From the IMG/VR virus record IMGVR_UViG_3300027533_000013, positions 32,001-96,000 of that record: a DNA stretch of 64,000 nt; one strand, 5' to 3'. The position numbers were made by a program, and so were the translations under genes. The notes under the pieces are model-generated. The model was given only the letters and a program-made list of their open reading frames with translations. It was not told where the DNA came from and did not search any database. Shown here piece by piece: positions 2,615-17,948 of the stretch. Origin of the DNA: a virus. Its lineage: Duplodnaviria; Caudoviricetes. Position 1 is the first letter of the stretch. Each line of letters starts with the position of its first letter.

Positions 2615-3715
2615 ATGGACTACGCCCGTATTCTCAAGTGGAGTCCTAACCAGTTGCGAAACCCCGCAGGGTCACCCGAGGGAGGACGATGGGCGAAGGG
2701 TCTTACCCCACAGGGGGAACGAGATCGATGGCATGGGAAGGATCAGGCGAAGGGTCGGAGACTTGGTACAACTGAGGCTGCTAGGACCATAGAATTTCAG
2801 AGGAATGAAGCTCCCACGTTTCCCAAGGGTACGAGCACTCAGCAACGTGAGTACATTGCAGGGCTGTCTCCGAAGGCGCAGCGACGTATTCGGGACGCTG
2901 AAAATAAAGTCATACAGGATGCAGCACTGGCCGAGATGAAAGCCAATATGGCGGTGTCAAAGTCCCCGCCACTGGATCGGACTCCGTCTGGTGAACACAG
3001 GAATACGCTCAGGACGCCCATCGTAGAACACTCAGAACACACACGGGAGTTGGGCGGCGGCATCAATGAATCCTTGGTGGTGGAAATTGATGGCAAAGAG
3101 TTTGTGTTCAAGCCGGTTGAGGGAGAAAAACATGGCGGGAGTGGTGAGGCGTCACTCGCAGAACGTGAAGTGATCGCATCTCGCATGGATGACGAACTGG
3201 GGTTCGACTTGGTGCCCATGACGGTGATGGGTGAAGTCGAAATCTCGGCCCCTAAATATCCAGAATATGACGAGACGCCTGTGAAAAGGATAGGCTCACT
3301 CCAAGAGTTTCAGGCAGGCGCAAGGAATTATGGCGTGGCGGATGTGAGTGGTCTGTCACGAAAAGATATCGGGAACATGGCGGTGCTCGATGCCCTTCTG
3401 GGAAATACTGACCGGCATACCGGTAATGCCATGGTGAAAGGTAATCAGTTAATTGCCATTGACCATGGTTACACGATGAGTGAAGTACGCGGCACCAACA
3501 GTTTAGCGGTCGATAATCTCAGACGAGATGATTTACCCACGAAATATCAGGGCGAATTAGCGGAGCGCATTGAGAAGATGGATGTAGCCCGTGTGCTTGA
3601 TGGGTCACATATTGGGAAGGCGGAACGAGCGTCCTTTGAGCGCCGGAGAAAAATCGTCATCAACCAGTTGCGTAAGGGAGAAATCCACCTGATTGGTGGA
3701 GCGTTATATGCGTGA
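2615..3715 (+). CDS. PI3/4-kinase/HipA-like kinase effector 1 with N-terminal tag
   Basis: GGGINES, VFKP..GE, REVIA, LGFDLVPMT, GSLQ, DALLGNTDRHTGN, AIDHG; N-terminus YARILKWSPNQLRNPAGSPEGGRW. Confidence 0.8.
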   Translation: MDYARILKWSPNQLRNPAGSPEGGRWAKGLTPQGERDRWHGKDQAKGRRLGTTEAARTIEFQRNEAPTFPKGTSTQQREYIAGLSPKAQRRIRDAENKVIQDAALAEMKANMAVSKSPPLDRTPSGEHRNTLRTPIVEHSEHTRELGGGINESLVVEIDGKEFVFKPVEGEKHGGSGEASLAEREVIASRMDDELGFDLVPMTVMGEVEISAPKYPEYDETPVKRIGSLQEFQAGARNYGVADVSGLSRKDIGNMAVLDALLGNTDRHTGNAMVKGNQLIAIDHGYTMSEVRGTNSLAVDNLRRDDLPTKYQGELAERIEKMDVARVLDGSHIGKAERASFERRRKIVINQLRKGEIHLIGGALYA

Positions 3716-3977
3716 ACTCACCATCTATAACTACAGCATGAAGCCCGAAGAAGTCTTGGGTAAGGTACGGCTGGTGGAGGGTGAAGTCACCATCACTGGA
3801 TTCCCACCACGGATGATGGCCGAGCTACAGGCAGGCATGCCTGATGCGAACACCGGCACCCGCATCATGCCGGATCAGGGCGTGGTGTTTTTCGAAGCGG
3901 TGCTGAATCGGTATACCGGAGCGTATGTCCGAGCCGTGGAGCGGAGCATGGCGGATGTATTGAAGTCCCATGGCTAA
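3708..3977 (+). CDS. putative immunity protein for kinase 1
   Basis: Overlaps the kinase stop; MRELTIYNYSMKPEEVLGKVRLVEG resembles ORFs 8151 and 9623; ends MADVLKSHG. Confidence 0.6.
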   Translation: MRELTIYNYSMKPEEVLGKVRLVEGEVTITGFPPRMMAELQAGMPDANTGTRIMPDQGVVFFEAVLNRYTGAYVRAVERSMADVLKSHG

Positions 3978-4452
3978 ATCCTTCACCGACGTGCTCAAGT
4001 GGGATGAGCATAAGCATCCCAGAGATAAACATGGGTTGTTCACGATGGGGACAGGCCCATTTGGGCACACGCCTGATGACCCCAAAAAAATCGTGCAGGT
4101 CTATGGGCTATCAGACTTTCCAGAGGATGCCCCGCCAGATCCCTTGGAGCCCAAGTATCAGACCGAGGAGAGAGCCGAGCAGGCTGAGCGGCGAAGCCAG
4201 CGAATTCATCTGACCCAAGAAAGTGATCCCAAGCTCCCACCTATGGGGTCGTTGACCACGAATACCGCCGCCAAGCAGCGGGGTATTGAGCGGCGGAAGA
4301 AGCGGAAGGAAAAAGCCGCACGGATGGCCGAAGCCAGACGAAAAGAAGGTGGCGTCGTCGGAGCGAAGCAGAGAGCCCTAGATTTCCGCATGGCGCAAGG
4401 CCGCGCACAGCAGAAAATTATCCGAGCTATCCGAGAGCGTAAAGACGACTAG
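3970..4452 (+). CDS. tagged basic internal head protein, function unknown
   Basis: N-terminus SFTDVLKWDEHKHPRDKHGLF; K/R-rich C-terminus. Confidence 0.6.
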   Translation: MAKSFTDVLKWDEHKHPRDKHGLFTMGTGPFGHTPDDPKKIVQVYGLSDFPEDAPPDPLEPKYQTEERAEQAERRSQRIHLTQESDPKLPPMGSLTTNTAAKQRGIERRKKRKEKAARMAEARRKEGGVVGAKQRALDFRMAQGRAQQKIIRAIRERKDD

Positions 4453-4454
4453 CC

Positions 4455-6092
4455 GTGGCGAAGACTGTAGACCTGAGAACGTATATCGCACTGGAGAGGG
4501 CGTTTCTTAGGCGTCTTCTGCGGACGTGGCGTATTCAGTCGGCTCCCATTTACCAGAAAATCACGCAAGCCTGTCTCGACCATAAATGGGATGAAGCCCG
4601 TCGATTGGTGCCCGATCTGGATATGGCTGAAGTCGGCACGGAAAACAAAGAGTGGATTACCTACATGCTCCTGTCGTGTGGCGTGTTCGGGGCCAACATG
4701 GTGGCGAGAGGTAAACCCTCCTTTGTGGGCGTGGGCACTTTCGATACCTTCCTGAAGCAGACCACCAACAACATGCTCCAGTATCTGGAGCACAACGCCA
4801 CCGCACAGATTCAGAAGGATGCTCTGCAATTGATTGCAGAGGATGAGGCCAAGACCAAAGCCATCAAGTTCGATGAGAGTAAACACCCACGAGATGGTAA
4901 AGGTAGGTTCGCTTACCATGGCACGTCCAATGAGTTGGCCGAGAAGATTCTGAAGGAAGGACTCAAGCCTCTCAGCGAGATGGATCGGAGTTCTCCCATA
5001 GGGAAAGGGTTTGCATCCACGAGTGAGAAAGTGGCGCTGAGTTATGCGGCGATGGCGTCGGATGATTCGGTGGACACTATTACAGTGTTTGTGTTCAAGC
5101 CAGAAGCCAGTCGTTACTTCCAGCCTGCCAACAAGCATGCTTTTGGGCCATCGGGTTCGTGGGCACAAGCGCGTAGCACAGAGATGTCGAGCACAGAGAC
5201 TGTGCCACCGGAATTGATTCACGAGGTGCGTCAGTATCGACTGGCTGATGTGGTCGAGGCACTAGGGCCGCAAGGTGGGAAACAGTATGCAGATTGGGAG
5301 TCTCCACTGGAGGATGTAGATCCAGTGAAGGTGGTCCGAAAAGAAGATCAGGTCATTTATGTGGCCTTTTTGACCACGTCTGGGCCTGTGTTAAAATGGG
5401 ATGCGTCGAAACACCCACGGGAACCCAAGGGAAGCGCCATAGGAGGGCAGTTCACCGAGGGAACCGTGCAGGAGGGTCCGGACTTTACCCGAGTGGCCAT
5501 CACGAGTCAGCGGCCAGAGGGTGATCCGGGGCACCAAGCGAACAAAGAGGTCTTCCAGCACATGCACGAGTTCCAGAGCCGTCTGGAGGCCCTACCGGGG
5601 GTTACCAGAGTCTCTGTGAAGCCGGGAGTCGGTGGGTGGGATGGTGGGTCGGAGTCCATGTGGCAAGTGTTCTACCGGGGCAACGGAGCCGCCAGACGGT
5701 TGGTGGCGCAGACGGCTAAGACGTTCAATCAGGATGCGGTGCTGGTCCTGAAGAAGTGTACGGGCAGTAATTGCCAGCCTGCGGTAGAATTGTCGTTCGC
5801 GGGTGGGGTGTCTCCGGTCGTCAGGGAAAAGGTCCATGCGGTGCTGGTGAAGAACGGCATCCAAGGGTGGACGTGGATGAAGCGGGGCGGAAAGACCCTA
5901 CTCCGGATGGTGTCGGTGCCCCAGTGGGGTGGCGTGGCTGAGAAGCACCAGAAGGCGACAGCCGCCGTCAGTCAGAAGTTACGAGAGGATGGGCTAGAGA
6001 ACCATCGTAGCGTGCATAAAGTGGCCGTATCGGTCATGGAGCGCGAGGGAGACAACAGCTATGACCGAATCATCGGACGAACAGGCACGTAA
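4455..6092 (+). CDS. MuF N-terminal half fused to an ADP-ribosyltransferase-like domain and a possible SAM-lyase-like domain
   Basis: Helical N-terminus; tag AIKFDESKHPRDGKGRF; ART motifs YHGTS..ILKEGLKP..FASTS..ALSYA..VPPELI; second tag VLKWDASKHPREPKGSAIGGQF; third domain GGWDGGSESMWQV..FNQDAVL. Confidence 0.6.
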   Translation: MAKTVDLRTYIALERAFLRRLLRTWRIQSAPIYQKITQACLDHKWDEARRLVPDLDMAEVGTENKEWITYMLLSCGVFGANMVARGKPSFVGVGTFDTFLKQTTNNMLQYLEHNATAQIQKDALQLIAEDEAKTKAIKFDESKHPRDGKGRFAYHGTSNELAEKILKEGLKPLSEMDRSSPIGKGFASTSEKVALSYAAMASDDSVDTITVFVFKPEASRYFQPANKHAFGPSGSWAQARSTEMSSTETVPPELIHEVRQYRLADVVEALGPQGGKQYADWESPLEDVDPVKVVRKEDQVIYVAFLTTSGPVLKWDASKHPREPKGSAIGGQFTEGTVQEGPDFTRVAITSQRPEGDPGHQANKEVFQHMHEFQSRLEALPGVTRVSVKPGVGGWDGGSESMWQVFYRGNGAARRLVAQTAKTFNQDAVLVLKKCTGSNCQPAVELSFAGGVSPVVREKVHAVLVKNGIQGWTWMKRGGKTLLRMVSVPQWGGVAEKHQKATAAVSQKLREDGLENHRSVHKVAVSVMEREGDNSYDRIIGRTGT

Positions 6093-6231
6093 GGAGTTGC
6101 GGGAAGCGTTGGCTCAGGAGCAGGCCACAGGTGAACCAGTGGATGACTCGTGGACCAATGACCTACCCAGTGATCCACTCCCCGAGGATGACGAGGACGT
6201 GTCGGCCACGTTCGTGAAGAAGCATACGTAG
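6061..6231 (+). CDS. small acidic protein (56 aa), candidate immunity/partner
   Basis: MTESSDEQARKELREAL...EDDEDVSATFVKKHT; GAGGGA RBS; overlaps the end of 4455..6092; too short for the ORF track. Confidence 0.5.
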   Translation: MTESSDEQARKELREALAQEQATGEPVDDSWTNDLPSDPLPEDDEDVSATFVKKHT

Positions 6232-6237
6232 GACACC

Positions 6238-8094
6238 ATGCCACCACTTACCCGGCAATTGATTGCAACTATCAAGTCTATGGTGCAGGGCTATGCCCAC
6301 GTCTTGAAGTGGAATCGCAACCAGCCGCGTGGCCCGAAGGGGTCAGCCACGGGTGGGCAGTGGATCAGTCAAGGGAGTCATGGGACCGGAGCGGCCAGCG
6401 CAATCGATGATAAATACGGCACGGCACCGGGGATGGAACGCTACGCCACCCATGGGGATCGTGGCGCAGGCTTTTCCACCATGGATCGAGCACGGGCTAT
6501 CGCAGGCCACACGCGGACACCCGACCCATCCTTCAAGCCTGTTCTGTTGAACGTCAAAGAAGGTGGCCGAGGATTTGTGAATCGTCCTCGTGGAGTGGGT
6601 GTTCCCGAACCACCACCGCCTGATCCACATCAGGAAGTCATTCAGGCCCTGAAGACCGACCGAGCGACAGACAGCCGCCCACTGGGGAATGCAGGCAATG
6701 CGAATGCCTCATGTGTGGTGACGTTGGTGGATGACAAGGGGGAGACCATCGAAGCCGTCTATAAACCCGAACGTGGTGAATCGTGGAGTTTGCGTTTTGC
6801 GAACCATGACATCAAGAAGATGGTCACCAACAAGGACTTTTCGTTGGCGGCTCGTGAAACCTTTGCGTATGAGGTGGATTCGGCACTGAAGCTGGAAATC
6901 GTGCCTGAAACCGTGCTCCGTGAGGTCGTAGACGAAACTAACATCGATATCAACACCAAGGCCAAAGGCGGAATGAACAGTGGTGATGGGCAGGGATACG
7001 ATTCAGACCAAGCCCGAGAGGATTATCGAGACTATCAGGAAAATGCCGAAGAAGACGCCAGAGAAAATGCCTATGAGGAAGCTGGCGACCAGATGGCTGA
7101 CCTATACCATGAGGCACAAAAAGAGCATGTTTCTGATATCCAAGAACGTGCCAAAGAGGTACAGGAAATCTGGGATGAGGAATATGAGGCGTTCAGAGAT
7201 CAGGATGCCCATGGAACACGTTCCGCCATGTTGGAACATCCCACGTTGCCCATGGGGTCTAAGGAACCCTTTGAGCGCAAGCCGGATGAAGGCAAACTGA
7301 ATCCCATCGAGTTTCTGGATGAAGCAAACGTCGATGTCACGGACTCTATGAACGAGGCCGAGGAAAACAAGGTCCGAGAACTTATCCGAGCGAAATTGAA
7401 GGACGGCTACAGCGGGTTCGATGAAGTCGATGAAGATGACGCGGAAGAACATCTGGACCGGGATAAATTCATCGAAGACCATGCGGACACCGAGGCCAGA
7501 ATCATTGACAGTATCGTAGCGAAAAACGTCCAGTCCTATACCGAGTGGCGTCACGACCATGGGTATAACACGTCAGGCACTGCTCCGAGCGGCAGTGGGA
7601 GTGGCAGTGGCCCTGATATGAATCCTGATGCGCCCCATCCTCAAGGGGGGTCGTTTCAGCACTACCGCAGTGATGCACGGAAAGACGGATACCTCAGTGC
7701 CAGTGGTGGAGCCAAGTTGGCGGTGCTGGACTACATGATCGGCACCATGGATCGTCACCCGAACAATTTGATGTACGACGGAACGGAACCTGTGGCTATC
7801 GACAACGGCTACAGTATGCCTGCGGTGCCTGACGGTGATCCGCCCGATGCTTTCACCTTCCGGTCGCATGGCGCGAGGGATTGGGCTAGTTCCGGCACAA
7901 TACCAGACGCCACCCGAACTGAGATACTCGATTCCATGTCGAAGACGAATTGGCAGGCCGTGATGGACCGCCACCCGAACATGAATGCACTGGAGCGGAA
8001 GGCATTTCTGGGCCGTGTCGAGAAGATGAAGACGGCGTTGGGCACTCCGGATGGCCTGAAAAACCTGTGGAGCGGTTTGAACAATATGTGGTAA
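6238..8094 (+). CDS. PI3/4-kinase/HipA-like kinase effector 2 with a large acidic insertion
   Basis: Tag GYAHVLKWNRNQPRGPKGSATGGQW; VYKPERGE, RETFAY, IVPETVLRE, PHPQGGS, LDYMIGTMDRHPNN, AIDNGYS. Confidence 0.8.
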   Translation: MPPLTRQLIATIKSMVQGYAHVLKWNRNQPRGPKGSATGGQWISQGSHGTGAASAIDDKYGTAPGMERYATHGDRGAGFSTMDRARAIAGHTRTPDPSFKPVLLNVKEGGRGFVNRPRGVGVPEPPPPDPHQEVIQALKTDRATDSRPLGNAGNANASCVVTLVDDKGETIEAVYKPERGESWSLRFANHDIKKMVTNKDFSLAARETFAYEVDSALKLEIVPETVLREVVDETNIDINTKAKGGMNSGDGQGYDSDQAREDYRDYQENAEEDARENAYEEAGDQMADLYHEAQKEHVSDIQERAKEVQEIWDEEYEAFRDQDAHGTRSAMLEHPTLPMGSKEPFERKPDEGKLNPIEFLDEANVDVTDSMNEAEENKVRELIRAKLKDGYSGFDEVDEDDAEEHLDRDKFIEDHADTEARIIDSIVAKNVQSYTEWRHDHGYNTSGTAPSGSGSGSGPDMNPDAPHPQGGSFQHYRSDARKDGYLSASGGAKLAVLDYMIGTMDRHPNNLMYDGTEPVAIDNGYSMPAVPDGDPPDAFTFRSHGARDWASSGTIPDATRTEILDSMSKTNWQAVMDRHPNMNALERKAFLGRVEKMKTALGTPDGLKNLWSGLNNMW

Positions 8095-8100
8095 CAGTAA

Positions 8101-8129
8101 TTGACAAATTGTTCAAATTGTGATACAGT
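8101..8129 (+). promoter_or_regulatory. sigma70-like promoter for the putative immunity gene 8151
   Basis: TTGACA-17-TACAGT with TG extended -10. Confidence 0.7.
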
Positions 8130-8150
8130 AATGGGTGGAGGATTCTAGTT

Positions 8151-8378
8151 ATGCACACCGAGATTTGGGATCATACGGGGGGAAGGTCGAGGGTGATGGC
8201 CATCGTCCGAGTGGATGGTGGAAAGCTCTCGATTGAAGAAAAAGAACCCATGCCGCCATCCTATCACAAGATGATCGAGATGACGCAGGCACGGATGCAC
8301 GGAGAACGAGCGTTTCTACGGCAGTTGGAAGTGGAATTTTCGGGGTCATACATCACGGCGACGTTCAAGAAAGACTGA
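8151..8378 (+). CDS. putative immunity protein for kinase 2
   Basis: GGAGG RBS; MHTEIWDHTGGRSRVMAIVRVDGGKL...FSGSYITA resembles ORFs 3708 and 9623. Confidence 0.6.
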   Translation: MHTEIWDHTGGRSRVMAIVRVDGGKLSIEEKEPMPPSYHKMIEMTQARMHGERAFLRQLEVEFSGSYITATFKKD

Positions 8379-8380
8379 CC

Positions 8381-9583
8381 ATGCTGATCTTCCAGCGGAA
8401 GCCTGTGCAATCAATTGCATACGTCTCCATCCTGAAGTGGGATCGGAACCAGCCCCGTGTCCCGAAAGGGTCACCAGAGAGTGGACGATGGACGCAGGGT
8501 GGTGTCAGTCAGGGTCTCGCCGCCACCACCATGGCCGGTCGAACGCCCAGAACGTCTACGTTCAAGCCGCCTGAGTATGGCTTTGGCAGTACGGAAGATC
8601 GTCGGATGGAAGCAGATAGGGCAAAAGCCGCAGGGTTTGCCACGATCATGAACGCCCCCATGGGCACGGGGTTTGCGAACCCACCACGTATCACCGGGCA
8701 ATCTTCGATGGTGAGGCGGTTGACGACGCCATCGAAAGCCCCGGTAGTATCGGCGGCACCAACTGGTTCGTCATTGAATTCGATGAGGACTGGCAACATC
8801 GCAGATTCTGAGGAAATCAATCCGGGGACACACGCCAATGAAACGTACAAAGTGACGTTGGAGGATGGGACCGTTGCCGCATTGAAGGCTGAATCAGGTG
8901 AACGCTGGGCCGCAGCCTTTTGGAATGACGATATTTCAAACTACGTCATCAACCGGGATCTGTCGCTGGGTGAGAGAGAAGCCATTGCCTTTGAAGTCTC
9001 AGAGGCGTTAGGACTGGATCTGGTGCCGGAGACGGTCCTCCGAGAACACATTGATGTTGTTAGTACCGGGCAACCTTTTGAGGGAGTGAACATCATGAAT
9101 GATGAGGCACCCCATCCACATGGAGGTAGTCTCACGAAGTGGGTGCCGGGTATTGATTCCGATGGTCAGAAAGCGACTCCACAAGAAATCCGAAGACTGG
9201 CAGTATTGGATTACGCTATGGGGCAGATGGATCGGCATCCCAACAATGTGTCCTTCGACGCTAATGGCAAGCTCCTCGCCATGGACAATGGTTACAGTCT
9301 TCCGGCTCCCATCTATGGTCATGATGAATTCACTTTCCGGTCGGCCACCACAAGAACGTGGAGGGAGTCAGCTAGTGACGACTTTCCAGAGGATGAACGG
9401 AAGCAAATGGCCGATGCGTTAGATAGGACGGACTGGACAGCGTTTGCTGATCGTCATTCGGGCATGAGCAGTCGAGAACGTGAAGCGTTTTTGGGTCGCA
9501 TTGAGAATCTGAAAGAAGCCATGAAGACCACCACGGGCTTGAAGGAACTGTGGAAGAACCAGACCCTGTATATGGACAATTGA
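8381..9583 (+). CDS. PI3/4-kinase/HipA-like kinase effector 3
   Basis: Tag AYVSILKWDRNQPRVPKGSPESGRW; ALKAESGE, REAIAF, LVPETVLRE, LDYAMGQMDRHPNN, AMDNGYS; close paralog of 6238..8094. Confidence 0.8.
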   Translation: MLIFQRKPVQSIAYVSILKWDRNQPRVPKGSPESGRWTQGGVSQGLAATTMAGRTPRTSTFKPPEYGFGSTEDRRMEADRAKAAGFATIMNAPMGTGFANPPRITGQSSMVRRLTTPSKAPVVSAAPTGSSLNSMRTGNIADSEEINPGTHANETYKVTLEDGTVAALKAESGERWAAAFWNDDISNYVINRDLSLGEREAIAFEVSEALGLDLVPETVLREHIDVVSTGQPFEGVNIMNDEAPHPHGGSLTKWVPGIDSDGQKATPQEIRRLAVLDYAMGQMDRHPNNVSFDANGKLLAMDNGYSLPAPIYGHDEFTFRSATTRTWRESASDDFPEDERKQMADALDRTDWTAFADRHSGMSSREREAFLGRIENLKEAMKTTTGLKELWKNQTLYMDN

Positions 9584-9601
9584 CAAATTATCTGATAGAC
9601 T
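9573..9601 (+). promoter_or_regulatory. sigma70-like promoter for the putative immunity gene 9623
   Basis: TGGACA-17-TAGACT with TG extension; a TTGACA also lies at 9580. Confidence 0.55.
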
Positions 9602-9622
9602 ACAGGGGCATGGAGGTGCTAG

Positions 9623-9868
9623 TTGTACGCAGAACTTATCAATTATTCGATGGACCCGCCTAAAGTGATCCGGACCATCCGGATCGTGGATGGGAAGCTC
9701 GTCCAGACGGGTGACATGTCTCCGGAGAAGAGACGGCATCTGGAGCAGGAATATCATCTGTTCAAGACCAAGCTGAACGGCAGCGATAAGGATTTCTTGG
9801 AGAATCGGTTGGACGTGGTATTTGCGAGTAACACGTATTACAAGCCGAAGTTTCACCCCGAGGAGTAA
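9623..9868 (+). CDS. putative immunity protein for kinase 3
   Basis: GGAGG RBS, TTG start; MYAELINYSMDPPKVIRTIRIVDGKL resembles ORF 3708. Confidence 0.6.
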   Translation: MYAELINYSMDPPKVIRTIRIVDGKLVQTGDMSPEKRRHLEQEYHLFKTKLNGSDKDFLENRLDVVFASNTYYKPKFHPEE

Positions 9869-9873
9869 TACCC

Positions 9874-11649
9874 GTGCTGCAATCGATTGCAGGATATGCG
9901 GCGGTGCTGAAGGGTGGCACCTATAGCTATGGGAATACCCAGATCCCTATTGCTCCTACCAGTGCAGCCGCGCTTAGTCTGAACATGGCCCGAGACGCCA
10001 TTCAGGATGACCATCTGGAGGGCGCAGGAAAGGACGTGGACCCCAACCACGTCACGGTGCGGTATGGCCTGTTGAACGAGAACCTCGACGCCCTGAGAGC
10101 CTTTCTTGCCAGTCAGAAGCCTTTTGAGGCGCGAGTCGAGGGGGTGGAGTTATTCCCTGCCTCAGAACACTCGGATGGAGCCGTGCCCGTGGTGGCGAGG
10201 ATCGTGTCACCCGAGTTGCACGCTATCGAGGCTGAGATTGGAAATTACGCAGATTTCAAGGAAAAGAGCTTCCCGGTTTACAAACCGCACTGCACATTGG
10301 CGTATTGTAAACCGGAGATTGCCGAGCGGTATCAAGAACTATTTGTCTATGGTTCGTTTGTGGTGCAGAGCATCACCATCAGCCATGCGTCAGGTGTGCA
10401 GGAAACCATCCCGTTCGGTATAACGAATAAGTTCGATGTAACGAAGAAAGATCCGGTCAGCGGACGTTATGTCACGCCGTTTGTGTCGTTCGATAAGCAA
10501 GGCGATGAGCAGCTACGTATGATTACCAGTCTCAACGCCAGCCGCTTGGCGACGTGGGGATTTACGGCTGAGGCCGAAGTGCTGGGGATGGCCCGGTATC
10601 GTCTGACCGCCGTGCTCGATGGTCGGACCAGTAAGTTCTGCCGCATGATTGATGGCCATATTTTTGATGTGGCTGATGCGCGTGAGAAGGTGATTGAAGC
10701 CCTGAACGTGCAAGACCCCAACGACCTTCGCGTCGTCCAACCATGGCCCAAGCAGGACAAAGCATCGATGGCCATGTACAGCGAGATGAATGCCCAAGAA
10801 CTGACTGACCGAGGGCTACACATCCCACCCTACCACCCGCACTGCCGCACGTTGTGCCGGTCGGTGGAGTCGAGCAAGGGGAAGACCACCGAGGTCACGG
10901 CCACGGTGCCTGATGGGACTGAGGTCTTTCAGCCTGTCACAGCGGCTGACCTAGCGGAGATCGGTGTGACAGCGACTCCTGAACAGGTGGCCGAGTGGAA
11001 CGCCAACATCGGCATGTCTCCGGTCGAGTTGATGACCAAGCTCACTGGAGGGCGTCCCCAAGAGGTGATGACACGAGGCGTTGGTTCGAAGCCGGTGGAG
11101 TTTCATCCCTCTGGGGATATCGGACTGAACGCCCGAGGGGTCACGGATGGGGTGGAATTCAAGCTGGGGGCGATACTGGACCCATTCACGGGTATCTTCT
11201 ACTTGACCCGTGCGGAGTTGGCTGAGGGCACGCCAAAGGCCGAGGCCGCGTTCCTGAAGCGTATGTTCAGTGCCATGCTGGACATGGGGAAGAAGTCCAC
11301 GGCATCCTCGATTGCGCTCAGCGTGGCCGGTAATGCGGCATACTACGCCAAGCTGGGATTTCTGCCTGACGAGTTGGAATGGGATGCTCTGCGGACGTAT
11401 TCACTGGGAGAGTTGGAAGCAGGAGTGTTGCAGCCGATGATGGCATCGCTGGCCCCGGCTGATGCGTTGCTGGTGAAGCAGCTACTACAAGATGGGTCAC
11501 CATCGGCCTTAGTTGCTCTGACCGAGCTACCGTTCACCTACGCAGGCAAGACCATCGGTGAGTGGATTCTCAGTGAGTCGTCAGGTATTTGGGCACTGGA
11601 TCTGGCCGATGATTTGATGGTAGCGCAGGCGAAAGCGTACCTCTCATGA
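9874..11649 (+). CDS. 2H phosphoesterase (Acb1-like) + MuF/SPP1 gp7 C-terminal half + GNAT-like domain
   Basis: Two HxT motifs (HVTVRYG at 10048, PHCTLAY at 10285); MuF motifs AVLDGRTSKFCRMIDG and PPYHPHCRT; C-terminal AAYYAKLGF. Confidence 0.75.
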   Translation: MLQSIAGYAAVLKGGTYSYGNTQIPIAPTSAAALSLNMARDAIQDDHLEGAGKDVDPNHVTVRYGLLNENLDALRAFLASQKPFEARVEGVELFPASEHSDGAVPVVARIVSPELHAIEAEIGNYADFKEKSFPVYKPHCTLAYCKPEIAERYQELFVYGSFVVQSITISHASGVQETIPFGITNKFDVTKKDPVSGRYVTPFVSFDKQGDEQLRMITSLNASRLATWGFTAEAEVLGMARYRLTAVLDGRTSKFCRMIDGHIFDVADAREKVIEALNVQDPNDLRVVQPWPKQDKASMAMYSEMNAQELTDRGLHIPPYHPHCRTLCRSVESSKGKTTEVTATVPDGTEVFQPVTAADLAEIGVTATPEQVAEWNANIGMSPVELMTKLTGGRPQEVMTRGVGSKPVEFHPSGDIGLNARGVTDGVEFKLGAILDPFTGIFYLTRAELAEGTPKAEAAFLKRMFSAMLDMGKKSTASSIALSVAGNAAYYAKLGFLPDELEWDALRTYSLGELEAGVLQPMMASLAPADALLVKQLLQDGSPSALVALTELPFTYAGKTIGEWILSESSGIWALDLADDLMVAQAKAYLS

Positions 11650-11792
11650 AGATGACCTTGAAACCGCTCAAGACAGACCATGCCACGCTAAAAATGGTGG
11701 TGTCGAAGCCTGTACCGAAGGCCAAGGCCCATCTCCAGTTGGTGACCAGACAGGGTGTGTCATCGGAACGAGCGAAGCAGTTACTGAGCTAG
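11646..11792 (+). CDS. small basic hypothetical protein (48 aa)
   Basis: ATGA overlap with 9874..11649; MKMTLKPLK...AKQLLS. Confidence 0.35.
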   Translation: MKMTLKPLKTDHATLKMVVSKPVPKAKAHLQLVTRQGVSSERAKQLLS

Positions 11793-11871
11793 GAAAATAG
11801 TTGTTGCGTTCTTGCGTTGTCCTGTAAAATAAGACCCCGTGCAACTGATTGCAATTGTGAGTCAGTAACCC

Positions 11872-12978
11872 ATGCCCCTGCATACGAGTCGATTCGTGTC
11901 CCGGTATGGACTCACACATGCCGCAGAGCCATCCAAACCCAAACTCCCCTTTGAATTAGTCCTGAAGTTCAACAAGTGCCACGCAGACAATTCCGGCCAA
12001 TTCTGTGACACGAGTGGTGGCACAGGTGGTAAAGAAAGTGGCGGCATAGGCGGTAAAGAAAAAGAGACTGCGAACTTCAAGAAAACTGTCCCGAAGGACG
12101 GTGAATATCCGGTAGGCACAGAACAAGACCCCATCATCAGGGCGTCAGTGAAACGTCGGTACATGGCGGGGGAAATTGAACTGGCCGACGAGCAAAAAGA
12201 ATTCTTTGGGATCGGGCCGGAAGTGAAGTTCAATTCCAAAGCGGCCAAGGTGACGAAACCCTCCGCGAAGCCATCCGACGTGAAGTCTGAGGACGGGCCG
12301 ACGCAAGTGTTCTTGGATGCCAGTACGCCGGAAGGTATCACCACGGCGCTGAAGGCCATGGGATGGAAAGATAAGAGCAAGGTTACGAACCGTGACGAAC
12401 TTTTCAAAATCGCGGAAAACAATGGGAAGATTGCGGAGAAAGGGCGTAAGCTCATTCTTGAGGCGTTGGAAAGTAGCCCCCGTGGGAAGGGAAAGGTCAA
12501 GGTAACGAAGGCGAGTGGGATTGATCAGAAGACGGCGGATAAGCTACAAGCCAACGTCAATCTCTTGCTGCACCCGACCATCCTGAAGCAGTTGAAGTCC
12601 AAGAGTACGAATCTGACGAGGGGCAGGTCGAGTGGAGATGCCCATTACTCACATTCTATTGAGGGTCAGATTACGTTTGGGCATGGGATGAATAAAAACG
12701 ATCAAGAAGCAATCTATGTTCATGAATTCGGGCATAGAATTGAAGTGTCAGTCAAAGGGTTGTTGGCGAAGGCAACCAAGGCCCGAGACAAAGCCGTCAG
12801 TGAGAACGAACCGTTGGTCAATGAATACTCCGAGAAAGTGTACGAGCATATTAAGGGCACAGAATATGTGTCGTCTGGATACGAGCACTACTTCCGCGAT
12901 CCCATTTCCTTTGCCGCCAAAGCCCCGAAACATTTTACGTTCATTCATCGGCTGGTGACGCGAGGGGAGTTGGTATAA
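11872..12978 (+). CDS. tagged zincin-like metallopeptidase effector
   Basis: Tag FELVLKFNKCHADNSGQFC; HEFGH at 12721 and downstream EYVSSGYEHYF. Confidence 0.7.
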   Translation: MPLHTSRFVSRYGLTHAAEPSKPKLPFELVLKFNKCHADNSGQFCDTSGGTGGKESGGIGGKEKETANFKKTVPKDGEYPVGTEQDPIIRASVKRRYMAGEIELADEQKEFFGIGPEVKFNSKAAKVTKPSAKPSDVKSEDGPTQVFLDASTPEGITTALKAMGWKDKSKVTNRDELFKIAENNGKIAEKGRKLILEALESSPRGKGKVKVTKASGIDQKTADKLQANVNLLLHPTILKQLKSKSTNLTRGRSSGDAHYSHSIEGQITFGHGMNKNDQEAIYVHEFGHRIEVSVKGLLAKATKARDKAVSENEPLVNEYSEKVYEHIKGTEYVSSGYEHYFRDPISFAAKAPKHFTFIHRLVTRGELV

Positions 12979-13244
12979 TGCAGGCGGTTATTAAGGTCGA
13001 GGGTGTCGAGGCGACATTCGATGGAGAGCGATGGGAGTGTCCCGATGCGACGTTAGCGGCGTTCCTGAATGCGTTTCGGTGGATGGGTTCTCGCCATAGC
13101 CAGTATGGTAGTGCTGGAAGCCATGCGGTGGCGGTGGCTGAAGAAATAGGAGCCGAAGTCGTTTCGGTGGAAGATACACCCACGGATAATGTCGATATCG
13201 TGAAGGGGTTGGGGGAGTCCGACGATGAGTCGGATGAGGAGTAG
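12978..13244 (+). CDS. small acidic protein, candidate immunity for the metallopeptidase
   Basis: TAATG overlap with the peptidase gene; 88 aa, acidic. Confidence 0.5.
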   Translation: MQAVIKVEGVEATFDGERWECPDATLAAFLNAFRWMGSRHSQYGSAGSHAVAVAEEIGAEVVSVEDTPTDNVDIVKGLGESDDESDEE

Positions 13245-13248
13245 TTTG

Positions 13249-14064
13249 ATGGCCATTGACACTCGCAAATCGCTGGTCAAGAAATACAATCCCAACCACG
13301 GAGTTGATGGGCGGTTTACATCAGGGTCCAGTGGGCTAGGAAACCGTCGTATTGGAGAGCGTGGCGGTGGCACCGCAGGGGCACCTGTGAAGGATGCGTT
13401 TGGCAGGTCGATGGGTTACCAAAGCCCCCATCCTCCAACGAAACAGACAGTAGCCGCCCACAGTCCACAGGCACAGCAAACCGCAGCCCACCTTCATGGC
13501 GCGTCAGACGGTGGTTCGGGTATCGTCAAAGATCGCGTCTTCATTCCCGGTGTGACGGATGAATTTGGGAGAACGGCTGAGGAACAAGCGGCAGCAAAGG
13601 TACCCAAGTTTCAGATTGAGAATCCGGCTGGACCGGGTTTTCAGTTCAGTAGCGCACAGCGACAGGCGAACGCTAGAGAGATGTTCGGAGCATCACCGTT
13701 GAAGCCAGATCCTTATGGTGAGACCGCCAGAAAACCAAACATTTTGGTGAGACCAGAACCGGCTGCGTTTGCGACCACGATGCGAACACCTAAGACGCCT
13801 GTGATGGCTGAGACGGCTCGCACACCAGCGACCACCAGACATGCCCCCAAAGAGGCCACGTTTCATGCGCCGTCCAAGGACATCAACGAGTATGTGAATA
13901 CTCAGCACATGAGGCGACTGGAAGGTGAATCATTGAGTGCGTATGTGGAGCGCCGAAACTCGTTGTTGAAAACTCAACGTGATCGTGAGGCGAAAGTAGC
14001 GAAGGCGAGAGCGAACGCCAGTGCTCCATTTCTCAGGGGACGGCCACCAGCATTCGTGAGGTAA
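13249..14064 (+). CDS. tagged low-complexity internal head protein
   Basis: GAGGAG RBS; SLVKKYNPNHGVDGRFTSG tag; Pro/Ala/Thr-rich. Confidence 0.6.
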   Translation: MAIDTRKSLVKKYNPNHGVDGRFTSGSSGLGNRRIGERGGGTAGAPVKDAFGRSMGYQSPHPPTKQTVAAHSPQAQQTAAHLHGASDGGSGIVKDRVFIPGVTDEFGRTAEEQAAAKVPKFQIENPAGPGFQFSSAQRQANAREMFGASPLKPDPYGETARKPNILVRPEPAAFATTMRTPKTPVMAETARTPATTRHAPKEATFHAPSKDINEYVNTQHMRRLEGESLSAYVERRNSLLKTQRDREAKVAKARANASAPFLRGRPPAFVR

Positions 14065-14068
14065 CCTT

Positions 14069-14344
14069 ATGCCGCTCACGAACGGGTTGTTGACGAGTCG
14101 TGCGGCTGCTCTGAAGGGTGAGGGCCATATTCACTCGGAGAAGTGGCATCGCTGTGTGGAGCACGTCAAGGCCAAGGGTGGTGGATACGATCCGTACGCC
14201 GTCTGCACCTTCAGCATTGGGTACAATGAGTCGGTCAACAAGGAACATCAGACGCCGGGGCCACATTCTTCACGAGACACCCGCAGATTCAAGCGGCGGA
14301 AAGAGCGTGCTGAAAAGTATGCCGACGTATTGAAATTCAAATAA
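14069..14344 (+). CDS. small basic protein (CxxxV..PYAVC) ending KYADVLKFK
   Basis: GAGG RBS; carries the YADVLK half of the tag at its C-terminus. Confidence 0.55.
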   Translation: MPLTNGLLTSRAAALKGEGHIHSEKWHRCVEHVKAKGGGYDPYAVCTFSIGYNESVNKEHQTPGPHSSRDTRRFKRRKERAEKYADVLKFK

Positions 14345-14364: not shown

Positions 14365-14604
14365 GTGACTGATAAACCGACACAGCTACCCACCGATCCC
14401 GACGACGAATCCGCTTCGCCACCGGAAGAAGGTGGTGAACGTCCTGATCAGGGACTTCCCGGCAAACCCGGTGGCATTGGTGGTCCCGGTAGACCCGATC
14501 AGGGGTTGCCCGGTCGTGGCCCCGGTGGACCGGGAAGCATCGGTGGTCCGAAGCCGACGCATCCGATTGCGCCGACACCCGAACCGAAGAAAGACAAGCG
14601 GTAG
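14365..14604 (+). CDS. Pro/Gly-rich small protein with RPDQGLPG repeat
   Basis: AGGAG RBS, GTG start; two RPDQGLPG copies. Confidence 0.55.
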   Translation: MTDKPTQLPTDPDDESASPPEEGGERPDQGLPGKPGGIGGPGRPDQGLPGRGPGGPGSIGGPKPTHPIAPTPEPKKDKR

Positions 14605-14657: not shown

Positions 14658-14673
14658 CTGATTGGGGTGTAGA

Positions 14674-15207
14674 ATGTCCTTGGTACTGAAGTCCGAAGAA
14701 CAGCACATTGTCATGGGCGTTGCTCCGGGCTATTGGGTGTCGAATGATGGCCGAGTGTGGTCCACACGTCCATTGAACGGGCAGGGGCCATTATTGCCGT
14801 GGGAACAGCGCCGAGAGATGAAACCGATTGTTCAGCACAATCAATATCGAACGGTGGTGATTGATAGAAAGACCGTGGCAGTTCATGCACTTGTACTAAC
14901 GGCGTTTGTAGGCCCACGACCAGCCGGGAAGCAATGTCGCCATTTGGATGGTGACAAGTCGAATAACCGGCGAGACAATTTGATCTGGGGTACTTGTGTT
15001 GAGCAGTCAGAAGATCGGGCCAAACACGGCACTAAGTTAGTAGGGTCGAAGATAGGCACGGCGAAGTTGACTGAAGCGCAAGTGAAAGAAGCGCGGAGTA
15101 TGCGACCCACTTTTCCGCTTGATTACATTGCCAAGAAATTTGGAGTGACTAAGACCTGTATTTGGCATGCTGTTTCTGGTTCCGGCTCCAATTGGAGACA
15201 CGTATGA
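14674..15207 (+). mobile_element. HNH homing endonuclease (NUMOD4/HNH type) fused to the former 5' end of the prohead protease gene
   Basis: YWVSNDGRVWS, VHALVLTAFVGPRP, CRHLDGDKSNNRRDNLIWGT, AKLTE; N-terminus MSLVLKSEEQHIVMG resembles the protease start. Confidence 0.85.
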
Positions 15208-15794
15208 ACCGAAAACTCGTAATCAAACAGGACGGTGAACTTCAGATAGCGATGGGCGAAGTTTACGCCCCCAACCGTCCTGATGCACAGGGTGAGTACA
15301 TGACGGTGGTGGAAATTCGGAAAATGGCCCATGAGTTTATCCGCTCTGGTAAGATGAAGCAGATCGACTTGATGCACGGTAATAAGATTGTTGAGGGCGC
15401 GAGTGTTGTAGAGTCGTTCGTCTCGGACGCATCCGACACACGGTTCCTACCTGATTCATGGGTGATTGGTGTTCATATCCCCGACCCAACTTTGTGGTCG
15501 TCCATCAAGAAGGGCGAAATCAACGGTTTCAGCATGGAAGCTCTCGTGTCCCGACACGATACGGATGTGGAGATTGAAATTCCTCCGGTCGTGTCAGGGT
15601 TGACCAGTAAGGGTGATGACGGTCATGAGCATAAATTCTTCGTCACCTATGACGAAAAGGGACAGTTCAAGGGTGGATTGACGGATGTGGTCAATGGCCA
15701 TTCGCATACCATCGTGGCGGGGACGCATACCCAAGACAGTCAAGGTCATCGCCATCGATTTAGTTCTGTTGATAACGTCCGAATCTTGAGGTAG
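15204..15794 (+). CDS. XkdF-like prohead serine protease
   Basis: GEVYAPNRPDAQGEYMT..EIRKMAHEF..IDLMH, VVESFV, W..IKKGEINGFSME; His-rich C-terminus (HEH, HSH, HRH). Confidence 0.85.
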   Translation: MNRKLVIKQDGELQIAMGEVYAPNRPDAQGEYMTVVEIRKMAHEFIRSGKMKQIDLMHGNKIVEGASVVESFVSDASDTRFLPDSWVIGVHIPDPTLWSSIKKGEINGFSMEALVSRHDTDVEIEIPPVVSGLTSKGDDGHEHKFFVTYDEKGQFKGGLTDVVNGHSHTIVAGTHTQDSQGHRHRFSSVDNVRILR

Positions 15795-15798
15795 GATC

Positions 15799-16965
15799 AT
15801 GCCGATTTTTCGGACCAAGTTGAAACAGTTGCGTGATGCGGATGTGCGGTTTATTTCGTTGGTAGATCGAGCCGCCACACGTATTCCGTTCCGAGTGTTG
15901 AAGCGTGAGAAGGAGAACGAGATGGGTATTGATCTGACGCGAGTATTCAAGTCGGACGGAAAAGAGGTGGCGAAGCCTTTTGTGTCGGCAATCGTGGTCT
16001 TCGCCCAGAAAAACGAGGACGCCGCGAAACAAGTGCGGGACGCCATCGAGAAGCACGGGTTCCGCATTGATCGCGTTCAGAAAGCCGATGGCGACGAGAC
16101 GCTGGTCTTCGCCCAGACGGATGCTCCGAAAGAAGTCCAGCTTGTGCGACTGAGCGATCAGTCGTTGGTATCCGTCGCCAACTTTCAGATTCCCTCGGGA
16201 TGGATGGGTGACCAGATCGAGGAGCACGGGTTCTTCCCCGATCTGAAGCTGGCCACTCAGAATCTGTACGACGAGATGCTGAAGGTTGCCAAGTCGGACA
16301 CACCACAGGACCATGCTCAGGCCGCGTTGACCAGCTACGCCCAGTACATGGAGCAGATGATCACGCTCCCGGTGGAAGCGTTCCAGTTGGACGAGGCCAT
16401 TGCTGAAATCGTCAAGAAGTGCTCCTGCGAAGACAAGAAAGAGGACGAGGAGCCGGTGAAGGAAGACGTGAAGACGGAAGACGTGGTCAAGGCCGACAAA
16501 AAGAGTCCCAAGTTGCCGCCGAAACTGGCCGGTGAGTCGGAGGCCGAGAGGAAGAAGCGTCTCAAGTCCCATCCGCCGTCTGAGATGGCTCCGGCTGATG
16601 AGGAAGATGACCAGAAGGGTCCACCGGAAGAAGCCAGCCCCGAAGAGGATGAAACCAAGAAGGCTGACACCGGCATTCAGGACATTCTCGGCGCGTTGAA
16701 GGCACTGAACGATAGCACCACGGCGCAGTTCACCACGCTGACGACCAAGTTGGAAGGTGTCGTCACCGAACAGGCCAGCCAGAAGAAAGTGCTTGACGAC
16801 GTGGTACAGAAAGCTGACACTTTGGGAGCGACGTTGAAGGGTACGGTGGTTGCCCCCGTTGTCTCCGAAGATCGCCCCGCAGGACCAGCCCGTATGCGGG
16901 TGCAGAAGGACGATGATCCTCGGACGGGCAATTTCGACACCGCGTTTCTGCGTCGTCGTCGGTAA
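15799..16965 (+). CDS. capsid scaffolding protein
   Basis: Lies between protease and MCP; N-terminal VRFISLVDRAA motif; acidic coiled-coil; many VxKAD/VxKSD sites. Confidence 0.7.
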   Translation: MPIFRTKLKQLRDADVRFISLVDRAATRIPFRVLKREKENEMGIDLTRVFKSDGKEVAKPFVSAIVVFAQKNEDAAKQVRDAIEKHGFRIDRVQKADGDETLVFAQTDAPKEVQLVRLSDQSLVSVANFQIPSGWMGDQIEEHGFFPDLKLATQNLYDEMLKVAKSDTPQDHAQAALTSYAQYMEQMITLPVEAFQLDEAIAEIVKKCSCEDKKEDEEPVKEDVKTEDVVKADKKSPKLPPKLAGESEAERKKRLKSHPPSEMAPADEEDDQKGPPEEASPEEDETKKADTGIQDILGALKALNDSTTAQFTTLTTKLEGVVTEQASQKKVLDDVVQKADTLGATLKGTVVAPVVSEDRPAGPARMRVQKDDDPRTGNFDTAFLRRRR

Positions 16966-17006: not shown

Positions 17007-17948
17007 ATGACGAATCAGGAAGTTATCCAAAAAGCGGATATGGCGCTTGCGGATCTGGCGACGGCTGGCAAGCTGAATCCGGAGCAGACCGACCGCTTCA
17101 TCCGTACGCTCATTGACCAGCCCACCCTGTTGGCTTCCATCCGGACGGTCGCCATGGGCGCACCGGAGATGAAGATCAACAAGATCGGCTTCGGCTCCCG
17201 AGTGCTGCGACCTGCGATCAGCGCCACCGCCATGGCTGATTCGGATCGCGTGAAGCCGGATCTTGGACAGGTGAACTTGGCGACGAAAGAAGTCATCGCT
17301 GAAGTCCATCTGCCCTACGACGTGATCGAGGACAACATCGAGAAGGGCAACATCAACGTGCCGTTGCAGACCGGCGCGGGTGGTCTGCACCAGACCATCG
17401 TGGACCTGTTGGCCGAGCGTGCCGCGCTCGACTTGGAAGAGCTTGGCATTCAGGGTGACACCGCAAACCTTGCGGACGCCTATCTGGCTCTTCAGGACGG
17501 CTATCTGAAGCTGGCCACCGCGAACGTGACCAACGTGGGTGGCGTGTTCGACAAGGCGGCGGTCAAAGCCGCACTGAAGACCATGCCGACCCGGTATCTC
17601 CGGAACCGCAGTGCCATGTCGCACTTCGTGTCCGTGGACAACGAGACGGAAATCCGTGACCAGTACGGTGCTCGTCAGACCGCACTCGGTGACGCACAGG
17701 TGCAGGGTCTGCTCCCGGTCTACATCTACGGTTCCAAGGTGACCCCGGTCGCCCTGATGCCGGGACCGCAGGGCCTGTTCACCGATCCGATGAATCTCAT
17801 CTTCGGGATTCAGCGGAACATCATGATCGAGTACGACAAGGACATTCGTGCCCGTGTGTTCATCATCGTGCTGACCTGCCGCATCGACTTCGCCATCGAG
17901 GAAGTCAACGCGGTGGTCAAGTACACGGGCATTACCGGAAGCCGGTAG
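17007..17948 (+). CDS. major capsid protein (HK97 fold, XkdG-like)
   Basis: GKLNPEQTDRFI, EDNIE, DLEELGIQGD, DGYLK, TDPMNLIFG; strong AGGAG RBS; followed by a terminator. Confidence 0.9.
   Translation: MTNQEVIQKADMALADLATAGKLNPEQTDRFIRTLIDQPTLLASIRTVAMGAPEMKINKIGFGSRVLRPAISATAMADSDRVKPDLGQVNLATKEVIAEVHLPYDVIEDNIEKGNINVPLQTGAGGLHQTIVDLLAERAALDLEELGIQGDTANLADAYLALQDGYLKLATANVTNVGGVFDKAAVKAALKTMPTRYLRNRSAMSHFVSVDNETEIRDQYGARQTALGDAQVQGLLPVYIYGSKVTPVALMPGPQGLFTDPMNLIFGIQRNIMIEYDKDIRARVFIIVLTCRIDFAIEEVNAVVKYTGITGSR

Follow-up and report, generated by a model that had tools for sequence, protein, structure and literature searches.

A two-part peptide tag marks the start of exchangeable effector modules in the head gene module of an uncultivated phage

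Introduction

Polyvalent proteins were described in 2017 as phage polypeptides that each unite several unrelated effector domains (2–15) and that are encoded beside the portal-terminase packaging and head genes (Iyer et al., 2017; PMC5512222). Their repertoire includes zincin metallopeptidase, ADP-ribosyltransferase (ART), kinase and GNAT domains as well as 2H fused to MuF, and both their delivery by the capsid and their autoproteolysis by the zincin domains they carry were predicted, while small open reading frames (ORFs) with polyvalent-type domains were seen to adjoin the kinase-bearing members (Iyer et al., 2017). One polyvalent protein, gp47, has been detected in phi24B virions. The array described here occupies about 12 kb of the + strand, at 2615–14344 of the window, between the portal and XkdF prohead protease genes of an uncultivated phage of about 120 kb (IMG/VR record IMGVR_UViG_3300027533_000013; 119,701 bp, complete according to CheckV), and its modules are headed by a two-part peptide tag, the second part of which, found in many other phages, is called the “handle.” The window, that is, the whole stretch of DNA analyzed, comprises 64,000 nucleotides (bases 32001–96000 of the record); unless stated otherwise, coordinates are those of the window and features lie on its + strand.

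Short motifs at the joints of exchangeable effectors are familiar from polymorphic toxins, in which VENN (in CdiA) and DPxGL (in Rhs) mark swappable C-terminal effectors and coincide with recombination breakpoints. Two phage systems also invite comparison. The MuF (SPP1 gp7) polymorphic toxins of temperate phages have an N-terminal MuF domain, a C-terminal toxin and a cognate immunity gene (Jamet et al., 2017; PMC5576092). In T4, a capsid targeting sequence carried by the proteins IPI–III and Alt directs them to the scaffolding core, is removed by gp21 and can be transplanted onto foreign proteins (PMC3012670).

Comparison With Described Systems

An initial annotation of this DNA had proposed a tagged multi-gene payload system made of about 12 kb of non-structural genes inside the head module. 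The placement is borne out by the chain of genes, since 16 tightly packed or overlapping ORFs follow the portal gene and reach position 14604, after which come the HNH, XkdF protease, scaffold-like and capsid genes. The array is made of at least eight separately translated genes with one to three modules each. It is indeed a multi-enzyme payload locus, but one of a kind already known: because its architecture, context and domain repertoire match those of Iyer et al. (2017), and because the modules are joined in relatives, it is most likely a dismembered phage-type polyvalent-protein locus. Each polypeptide carries one to three modules here, and ORFs of 1135–1779 residues with 3–7 tags occur in relatives; the locus lies beside packaging and head genes, from portal to XkdF protease, scaffold and capsid; as for the repertoire, the kinase and 2H domains score above their Pfam cut-offs, the MuF, ART and zincin domains score below theirs but are consistent with it, and the GNAT domain is a structural lead.

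The array differs from the described polyvalent proteins in four respects. The chain is broken up into eight genes or more. Each module is headed by a two-part tag, of which term searches of Iyer et al. (PMC5512222) found no mention. Both Pfam and the fold mark the kinases as PI4K-like, whereas a truncated Ser/Thr/Tyr-type kinase, which may or may not be of the same clade, is described there. Lastly, the kinases have partners with early promoters, which are not described in Iyer et al. (2017). What is new here is thus a polyvalent locus dismembered and tagged gene by gene, with kinase partners that are probably expressed early.

As in the MuF toxins (Jamet et al., 2017), MuF is fused to effector domains within the head module and a small gene follows. 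The MuF core is however not N-terminal, lying at residues 220–326 of a 591-residue protein between 2H and GNAT-like domains; many of the effectors are not fused to MuF, and signs of a temperate lifestyle were not found among the proteins scanned. Like the T4 capsid targeting sequence, the tag is a short, shared N-terminal peptide on diverse proteins, which in T4 are injected and counter host defenses. It has no sequence similarity to the T4 peptide, the handle probably stays on its module, and in many unrelated phage lineages the handle is met at internal positions and behind portals as well. In contrast to VENN and DPxGL, the handle belongs to another delivery machine and is repeated many times per protein, and an autocleavage chemistry is not evident.

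A Tag Shared by Unrelated Proteins

The tag is about 25 residues long. Its nine copies all lie in the array, none elsewhere in the 119.7-kb genome: a hidden Markov model (HMM) built from them scores 31.9–62.7 bits at window positions 2615, 3970, 4839, 5370, 6280, 8411, 10402, 11941, and 13255, and the next best score in the six frames of the whole genome is 6.5 bits. The earlier claim that unrelated proteins share a short peptide is therefore sound, with a qualification as to placement, which is N-terminal for six copies but internal for three (two in a 545-residue protein and one in the 591-residue protein). Three half-tags accompany them, at the N-terminus of the 591-residue protein (GYAAVLKG) and at the C-termini of a 91-residue ORF (YADVLKFK-stop) and of a 94-residue ORF (ADVLK); truncated tags lie at 3948–3974 and 14315–14341. 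Between 3948 and 4002, a DVLK piece is found both at the end of the 94-residue ORF (ADVLKSHG-stop) and at the start of the overlapping 160-residue gene (FTDVLKW), which looks like the scar of a recombination at a tag.

The window and nine relatives together supplied 71 distinct instances, all of which lie on the gene strand, and a clade consensus was drawn from these. The first part, specific to this clade, reads [YF]-x-x-[VA]-L-K, with an aromatic residue at −5, V or A at −2, L at −1, and the anchor K at 0. The second part, the handle, reads [WFY]-[DN]-x-x-(K/Q)-(H)-P-R-x(3-8)-G-x-[FW] and always opens with an aromatic residue; in this array it mostly takes a longer form, ...Q-P-R-x-P-x-G-S-x-x-G-G-x-W. 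In the AlphaFold2 (AF2) model of a 400-residue kinase of the array, the tag and about 85 residues after it are disordered (pLDDT, the model's local confidence score, of 30–40), so the tag behaves as a short linear motif and not as a domain. Selection acts on the peptide, and the tag is not conserved as DNA: codons differ at 64% of the identical residues between pairs of tags, whose DNA identity is only 70–78%. In ART modules, the catalytic HGT strand comes within three residues after the aromatic residue that closes the handle; since the handle abuts that strand, a cut downstream of it is unlikely there, and any protease cut is more likely to fall just before the handle.

A variant with cysteines, N-K-C-H ... 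G-Q-F-C, forms the tag of the zincin-like protein (DNA 11938–12039), and the same variant (N-x-C-H ... G-Q-F-C) is repeated nine times in a protein of 2992 residues (P0032); possibly this form of the handle binds metal. The sequence QxIA, found upstream of several tags, was considered as a third part and discarded, being a genome-wide palindrome, TGCAAT-NN-ATTGCA, read in frame. No Pfam or NCBIfam model covers the handle motif, and no description of a handle or junction motif was found in the literature searched or, by term searches, in Iyer et al. (2017) or Jamet et al. (2017), the words motif, linker, and cleavage having no occurrence in the latter (PMC5576092).

The Handle in Other Phages

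The tag appears undescribed in the literature searched, and is widespread. The form of the handle met most widely is [WF]-D-x-x-K-H-P-R-x3-G-[KR]-F. A degenerate DNA pattern for F-D-E-x-K-H-P-R-x3-G-[KR]-F matched 113 stretches in IMG/VR, against nine for a control with a spacing of two residues; at about 1e-13 per position under uniform base composition, fewer than one match is expected by chance in about 1e11 bases. In genomes from many phyla, the DNA pattern matched 41 stretches. Among 1.84 billion proteins, the tag profile at E ≤ 1e-3 recovered at least 1,114 cluster representatives, a figure that is a minimum since one copy of the tag by itself cannot reach significance in a library that large; the top matches are proteins of 1,200–4,000 residues with up to 13 copies of the tag.

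The contexts of the motif, taken from 68 non-redundant ORFs, show what it connects. Upstream stand portals, in 22 of 35 segments and from four Pfam portal families, the others being NUDIX, LPD1, and ParB. Downstream follow topoisomerase IB, zeta toxin, ADP-ribosyltransferase, PBECR nucleases, LPD3, LPD13, NUDIX, kinase/HipA-like domains, and the XkdF protease, and the genes after the motif-bearing ORFs encode capsid, MuF, cement, and DUF2213 proteins. Just upstream of the stand-alone tagged ORFs lie MuF, minor-capsid-2 or portal genes (18 matches among 47 ORFs). Such was the expectation of the initial annotation, which had suggested running the tag HMM against phage genomes: the tag adjoins portal, MuF or XkdF genes and is followed by variable enzymes. 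The handle marks the start of exchangeable modules. An ATG or GTG start codon is found one to three codons before its F in 17 of 30 stand-alone cases as against 1 of 37 internal ones, and in the former it is often preceded by a purine run resembling a Shine-Dalgarno sequence. In one locus (L125), the prohead protease is itself a tagged module. A tblastn search of GenBank phages with one tag gave matches at E ≥ 0.8, which were used as leads only and then confirmed by reading the sequence. The handle also exists in culture: gp4 of Pseudomonas phage Orimi01, whose host is P. syringae 7C, consists of a portal, the motif and an ADP-ribosyltransferase, with a MuF gene following it. Another cultured phage with the motif is Gordonia phage Tardus (gp19).

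Shuffling of Modules Among Relatives

Forty-two portal-related loci were found, at 28–100% identity; the relatives compared have portals 65–100% identical to that of the window, and 10 kb of flanking sequence was fetched on each side. The tag lies on the gene strand only, and every significant match in these flanks is downstream of the portal. Most of the relatives' tags lie inside giant ORFs (1135 residues with three tags, 1247 with two, 1779 with seven). The three modules of the 545-residue protein occur apart, in different ORFs, and the 2H and MuF/GNAT parts of the 591-residue protein are separated by other modules in two relatives (G001 and G002). Over all pairs, 38.5% of the internal homology breakpoints lie within 25 residues of a tag, compared with 10.7% for random positions; alignments start mostly between −13 and +1 of the anchor K and end between +2 and +23.

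Kinases and Their Small Partners

The initial annotation had recognized three PI3/4K-HipA-like kinases in the array. They are indeed PI4K-like with intact catalytic residues, but their fold is nearest to PI4KII and not to HipA. Kinase 1 (366 residues, 2615–3715; PF00454 E 5e-9, above cut-off) has its tag at residues 3–26 (DNA 2621–2692; 53.8 bits). Kinase 2 (618 residues, 6238–8094; PF00454 E 1e-7), which has an acidic insert and orthologs in all relatives, has a tag at DNA 6280–6381 (60.3 bits). In kinase 3 (400 residues, 8381–9583; PF00454 E 1.5e-5), the tag (DNA 8408–8509) lies within a disordered N-terminal stretch of 128 residues. Two of the three score above the Pfam cut-off. In an alignment of ten orthologs and paralogs, K169, D284-R-H-x-x-N289, and D302-x-G304 (kinase 3 numbering) are invariant, and the best Foldseek match of the kinase 3 AF2 model is PI4KII-alpha (E 2.7e-9). 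PDB sequence searches with the 400-residue kinase and with the 591-residue protein returned no matches.

Each kinase is followed by a small ORF. Partner 1, encoded in the 94-residue ORF (3708–3977, the ORF being open from 3693), has its homologous start, ATG 3708, overlapping the kinase stop, and its end is the ADVLK half-tag. Partner 2 (75 residues, 8151–8378; family HMM E 1e-33) has a GGAGG ribosome-binding site, and partner 3 (81 residues, 9623–9868; E 1e-27) uses a TTG start after GGAGG. Together with the post-kinase ORFs of relatives they form one small family, always placed after a kinase, which has only 24 homologs among 5.8 billion proteins; the long contigs that carry them are phage-sized. 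The AF2 model of partner 2 (pLDDT 96) shows three strands, two helices and one strand. Foldseek found no match for it, and a wide structural search reached Z 4.6 at best; its top 30 structural neighbors include HipS and the HipA N-subdomain at Z 3.2–4.2, which is the noise range, and alignment with VIA-align gave Z 4.2 (7ab3_B) and 4.0 (7vkb_B), values that chance matches also reach. The pairing of a small protein with a kinase recalls HipBST (PDB 7ab3), from which the array differs by a reversed gene order, by the absence of HipB and by the PI4KII-like, not HipA-like, fold of the kinase.

Two of the partner genes are preceded by early-type sigma-70 promoters. The one before partner 2 (8101–8129) reads TTGACA, a 17-nt spacer, TACAGT, and the one before partner 3 (9573–9601) reads TGGACA, a 17-nt spacer, TAGACT; in both, the last three bases of the spacer are the TGn of an extended −10. 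Of the composite motif, TTGACAAA, then 14–15 bases, then TGnTAnnnT, the whole genome has 15 copies on its + strand, compared with 0.48 in shuffled sequences, and one on its − strand. Within the structural block of about 50 kb there are only two, one immediately ahead of the partner of kinase 2 and the other immediately ahead of that of kinase 3. Nine of the ten kinase-partner gaps examined (two in the window and seven in relatives) contain an extended −10, usually a TTGACA −35, and GGAGG, and these promoters are kept although the surrounding sequence differs. As host-type early promoters thus sit inside a late operon, the partners are probably made early by the host RNA polymerase, before the late kinases.

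The small coupled genes had first been taken for cognate immunity genes. That idea survives as a hypothesis for the three kinase partners only, which belong to one family, are paired with kinases and in two cases have a promoter of their own; it fails for two other small ORFs, of 56 and 91 residues, which are pieces of modules since they are fused to tagged modules in relatives.

Proposed Role of the Tag

How polyvalent or other injected effectors are loaded into capsids, and how their modules are exchanged, is to our knowledge not known outside T4 and P1. What, then, would a phage gain from placing the same peptide before so many different enzymes? Our preferred reading, to which we give a probability of roughly 0.55, is that the handle holds its module back in the procapsid and carries it out along with the DNA, and that the XkdF protease separates or trims the modules at [YF]xx[VA]LK. 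The handle would bind a component that is conserved and situated at the portal vertex or within it, so that the module would be kept in the procapsid and later expelled; the protease would cut at the clade-specific part just upstream, each module thereby ending up with the handle at its free N-terminus; and the freed modules would exit alongside the DNA and have the next host as their target. All relatives have conserved the XkdF protease, which is not the case for the zincin. The predicted cargo comprises the three PI4K-like kinases, the zincin, an ART-like enzyme, a GNAT-like domain, a possible S-adenosylmethionine (SAM) lyase and a 2H phosphodiesterase that might serve to degrade nucleotide immune signals. 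A partner made before its kinase from an early promoter would probably neutralize it, either protecting the phage from its own enzyme or setting a time limit on the injected kinase; such pairs suggest a regulated, time-limited manipulation of the host to which the kinases would be delivered.

Several observations weigh against this reading. At least five portal families and several capsid types are represented among the handle loci, few of which show a recognizable prohead protease; with portal and capsid lineages so diverse and proteases so few, a single conserved binding partner or protease is not evident. Modules fused to a portal would need no address tag. The relatives also have a second tagged locus, about 15 kb upstream of the portal, beside a gene for a PPDK_N/PEP-utilizing enzyme. 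As for the partners, their fold matches nothing clearly (the likeness to HipS reaches only Z 4.2), the partner of kinase 1 has no promoter of its own and overlaps the kinase stop codon instead, and the promoter scan taken as a whole does not rise above chance, only the specific composite motif doing so.

That the tag is only a proteolytic junction, at which the prohead protease or the zincin cuts polyproteins whose entry into the head is otherwise ensured, for example by fusion to MuF or portal or by passive trapping, we regard as unlikely, although it is the most serious rival. It would explain why giant ORFs have tags where their domains meet and why tags separate portals from effectors, portal-fused effectors need release before ejection, and both candidate enzymes have something in their favor, autoproteolysis by zincins having been predicted (Iyer et al., 2017) and the XkdF protease being present in all relatives. 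Yet stand-alone proteins start one to three residues before the handle, with nothing to remove; the handle is found alongside portals and capsids of diverse lineages, and in many cases no protease was seen in its vicinity; close relatives have not kept the zincin; and the tag abuts the ART catalytic strand. The system works with separately translated genes, and these keep both parts of the tag in full even where it begins as early as residue 3, which, together with the tagged prohead protease of L125, argues that the tag is more than a joint. A purely DNA-level role, the tag being a recombination joint for cassette exchange with no function as a peptide, agrees with the clustering of homology breakpoints at tags and with the two truncated copies, but it is rejected on codon usage, since the identical residues are so often differently encoded and the tag DNA is only 70–78% identical, and since the motif is kept across phyla of differing base composition; we consider it the least credible of all.

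Two further explanations place the action in the recipient cell or in the lysogen. The handle could act after injection and not in assembly, as a docking peptide for a conserved host factor or as an N-terminal aromatic residue setting the lifetime of the protein. Its position at the extreme N-terminus, its invariably aromatic first residue and its conservation across phages of many host phyla would suit this role, but its tight association is with portal and MuF genes and not with early genes, and it is found on a prohead protease, which works inside the prohead during assembly; we know of no host partner of the handle, and we hold this explanation to be improbable. Somewhat less probable still is a MuF-type toxin-immunity array by which lysogens would kill non-immune bacteria, each small ORF being an immunity protein. 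A MuF domain and small downstream ORFs are indeed present, following the precedent of Jamet et al. (2017), and the promoters of the kinase partners could run in a lysogen. However, the 56- and 91-residue ORFs are fused to modules in relatives, and the MuF domain is central and not N-terminal. The phage moreover looks virulent: nearly all genes of its genome of about 120 kb are on one strand, the structural block is followed by the phage's own replication module (DnaB, primase, helicase, RecA), direct terminal repeats are present in two relatives, and no integrase was seen among 10 replication-region proteins or among the other proteins scanned. For these reasons a role in competition like that of the toxins of temperate phages is not favored, nor is the earlier suggestion that the array serves to kill competitors. 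The promoters are of sigma-70 type and the ribosome-binding sites are GGAGG.

To return to packaging and ejection by means of the handle, this reading can be widened: judged from sequence, the handle may be a general signal, the counterpart across lineages of the T4 capsid targeting sequence, that loads any carrier into the capsid and out with the DNA, to which this clade would have added early-made antidotes timing the injected kinases. We regard this wider version as tentative, with the odds somewhat against it. A tag that heads every module and is present in cultured phages such as Orimi01 offers a direct experimental entry point, and it could be developed to load proteins of choice into phage particles.

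Other Modules of the Array

The domain calls of the initial annotation are of unequal solidity: those of the kinases and of the 2H-MuF protein are firm, and the ART, HExxH, SAM-lyase and GNAT calls are weak leads. Following the order of the genes, a tagged, basic, low-complexity protein of 160 residues (3970–4452) carries its tag at residues 5–25 (45.8 bits); it has a homolog in relative G004 and no Pfam or PHROG match. Next comes the 545-residue protein (4455–6092), which consists of an N-module (residues 1–135), tag a (DNA 4839–4940), an ART-like module, tag b (DNA 5367–5468) and a SAM-lyase-like module. The ART-like module matches PARP at E 5e-4 and Tpt1/KptA at E 0.019, and the SAM-lyase-like module matches S-AdoMet_lyase at E 0.04, with an Atlas lead of 0.76, all below cut-off and leads only. 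The 56-residue ORF (6061–6231) overlaps the end of this gene; a module fragment conserved in L003, L028, and G002, it is fused in G001 to the N-terminus of a tagged 404-residue protein.

The 591-residue protein (9874–11649) comprises the N-terminal half-tag, a 2H domain (residues 56–150), an internal tag (DNA 10402–10503), the MuF core and a GNAT-like C-terminus. The 2H domain has the HVT and HCT motifs and scores 38.5 bits with PF13563 (2_5_RNA_ligase2; cut-off 27); with Acb1 it scores 16.6 bits (E 0.007) against a cut-off of 27 and so falls outside that family. The MuF core, at 24.3 bits, is below its cut-off and is backed by PHROG minor-head and head-morphogenesis matches at E ~1e-8, while only a structural match points to the GNAT-like C-terminus (Atlas TM 0.69, with a GNAT/MuF cluster). 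A MuF gene split in two was considered but is not supported, the core being complete in this protein and the N-module of the 545-residue protein having no Pfam or PHROG MuF match. After the MuF gene comes a 48-residue ORF (11646–11792), conserved in G001 and G004, with no known fold or family.

The tagged, HExxH zincin-like protein (368 residues, 11872–12978) contains HEFGH and matches ATLF, a lethal-factor-like family, at E 0.004, below cut-off. It is followed by an acidic ORF of 88 residues (12978–13244), outside the partner family and with no homolog among the relatives, and by a tagged low-complexity protein of 279 residues (13225–14064; tag DNA 13255–13356, 31.9 bits) with a homolog in G004. 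The 91-residue ORF (14069–14344), a module fragment, ends in the truncated tag; its homolog in G004 runs on through a full tag into a 216-residue protein.

Neighboring Genes and Further Observations

The portal protein (621 residues, 747–2612) is untagged and matches phrog_12 (portal, E 4e-22) and, weakly, PF04860. On the other side of the array, directly before the HNH and protease genes, lies an untagged, Pro/Gly-rich ORF of 79 residues (14365–14604), the equivalent place in G002 being held by an untagged 223-residue Pro/Trp-rich protein with PGMPGWG repeats. At its 5′ end, the protease gene has received an insertion, an HNH endonuclease gene (14662–15207; PF13392 E 2e-11). The first 15 residues of its ORF (14662–15260 region) duplicate the protease N-terminus of relatives, and a second copy starts the protease, which is intact despite the insertion (15204–15794). 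This protease matches PF14550 (Peptidase_S78_2) with 79.4 bits (cut-off 24) and phrog_15223 at E 4e-65, and is 76–78% identical in relatives. Between it and the capsid gene lies a scaffold-like protein of 388 residues (15799–16965; phrog_27672), the N-terminus of which matches the start of a protease-scaffold PHROG; the major capsid candidate (313 residues, 17007–17948; phrog_1623 E 1e-96) is 85–91% identical in relatives.

The second tagged locus of the relatives (G002:C1:78650-81700; G001:C1:39400-40200; G004 35.6–36.8 kb) encodes a 635-residue ART-like protein with two tags and proteins of 374 and 254 residues. At the same place, the genome studied here has only a 57-residue ORF with a half-tag, YSYVLKF (G000:C1:16758-16931).

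Window sites of the composite promoter TTGACAAA-N14/15-TGnTAnnnT are at 8101, 9573, 46365, 48165, 54341, 56877, and 59885, and a divergent promoter pair (46345/46365) stands at the boundary between the structural and replication modules. The palindromic 14-mer TGCAAT-NN-ATTGCA has 44 matches in the window with at most two mismatches, compared with 6.2 ± 2.8 in shuffled sequences, and 37 sites in the 119.7-kb genome, many of them 5–75 nt from the starts of + strand genes. Its window positions include 673, 4826, 6255, 8407, 9879, 11841, 14625, 18000, and 22835, and further on 26234, 30703, 34251, 45537, 51367, and 56859; it may be a regulator-binding or promoter-associated site.

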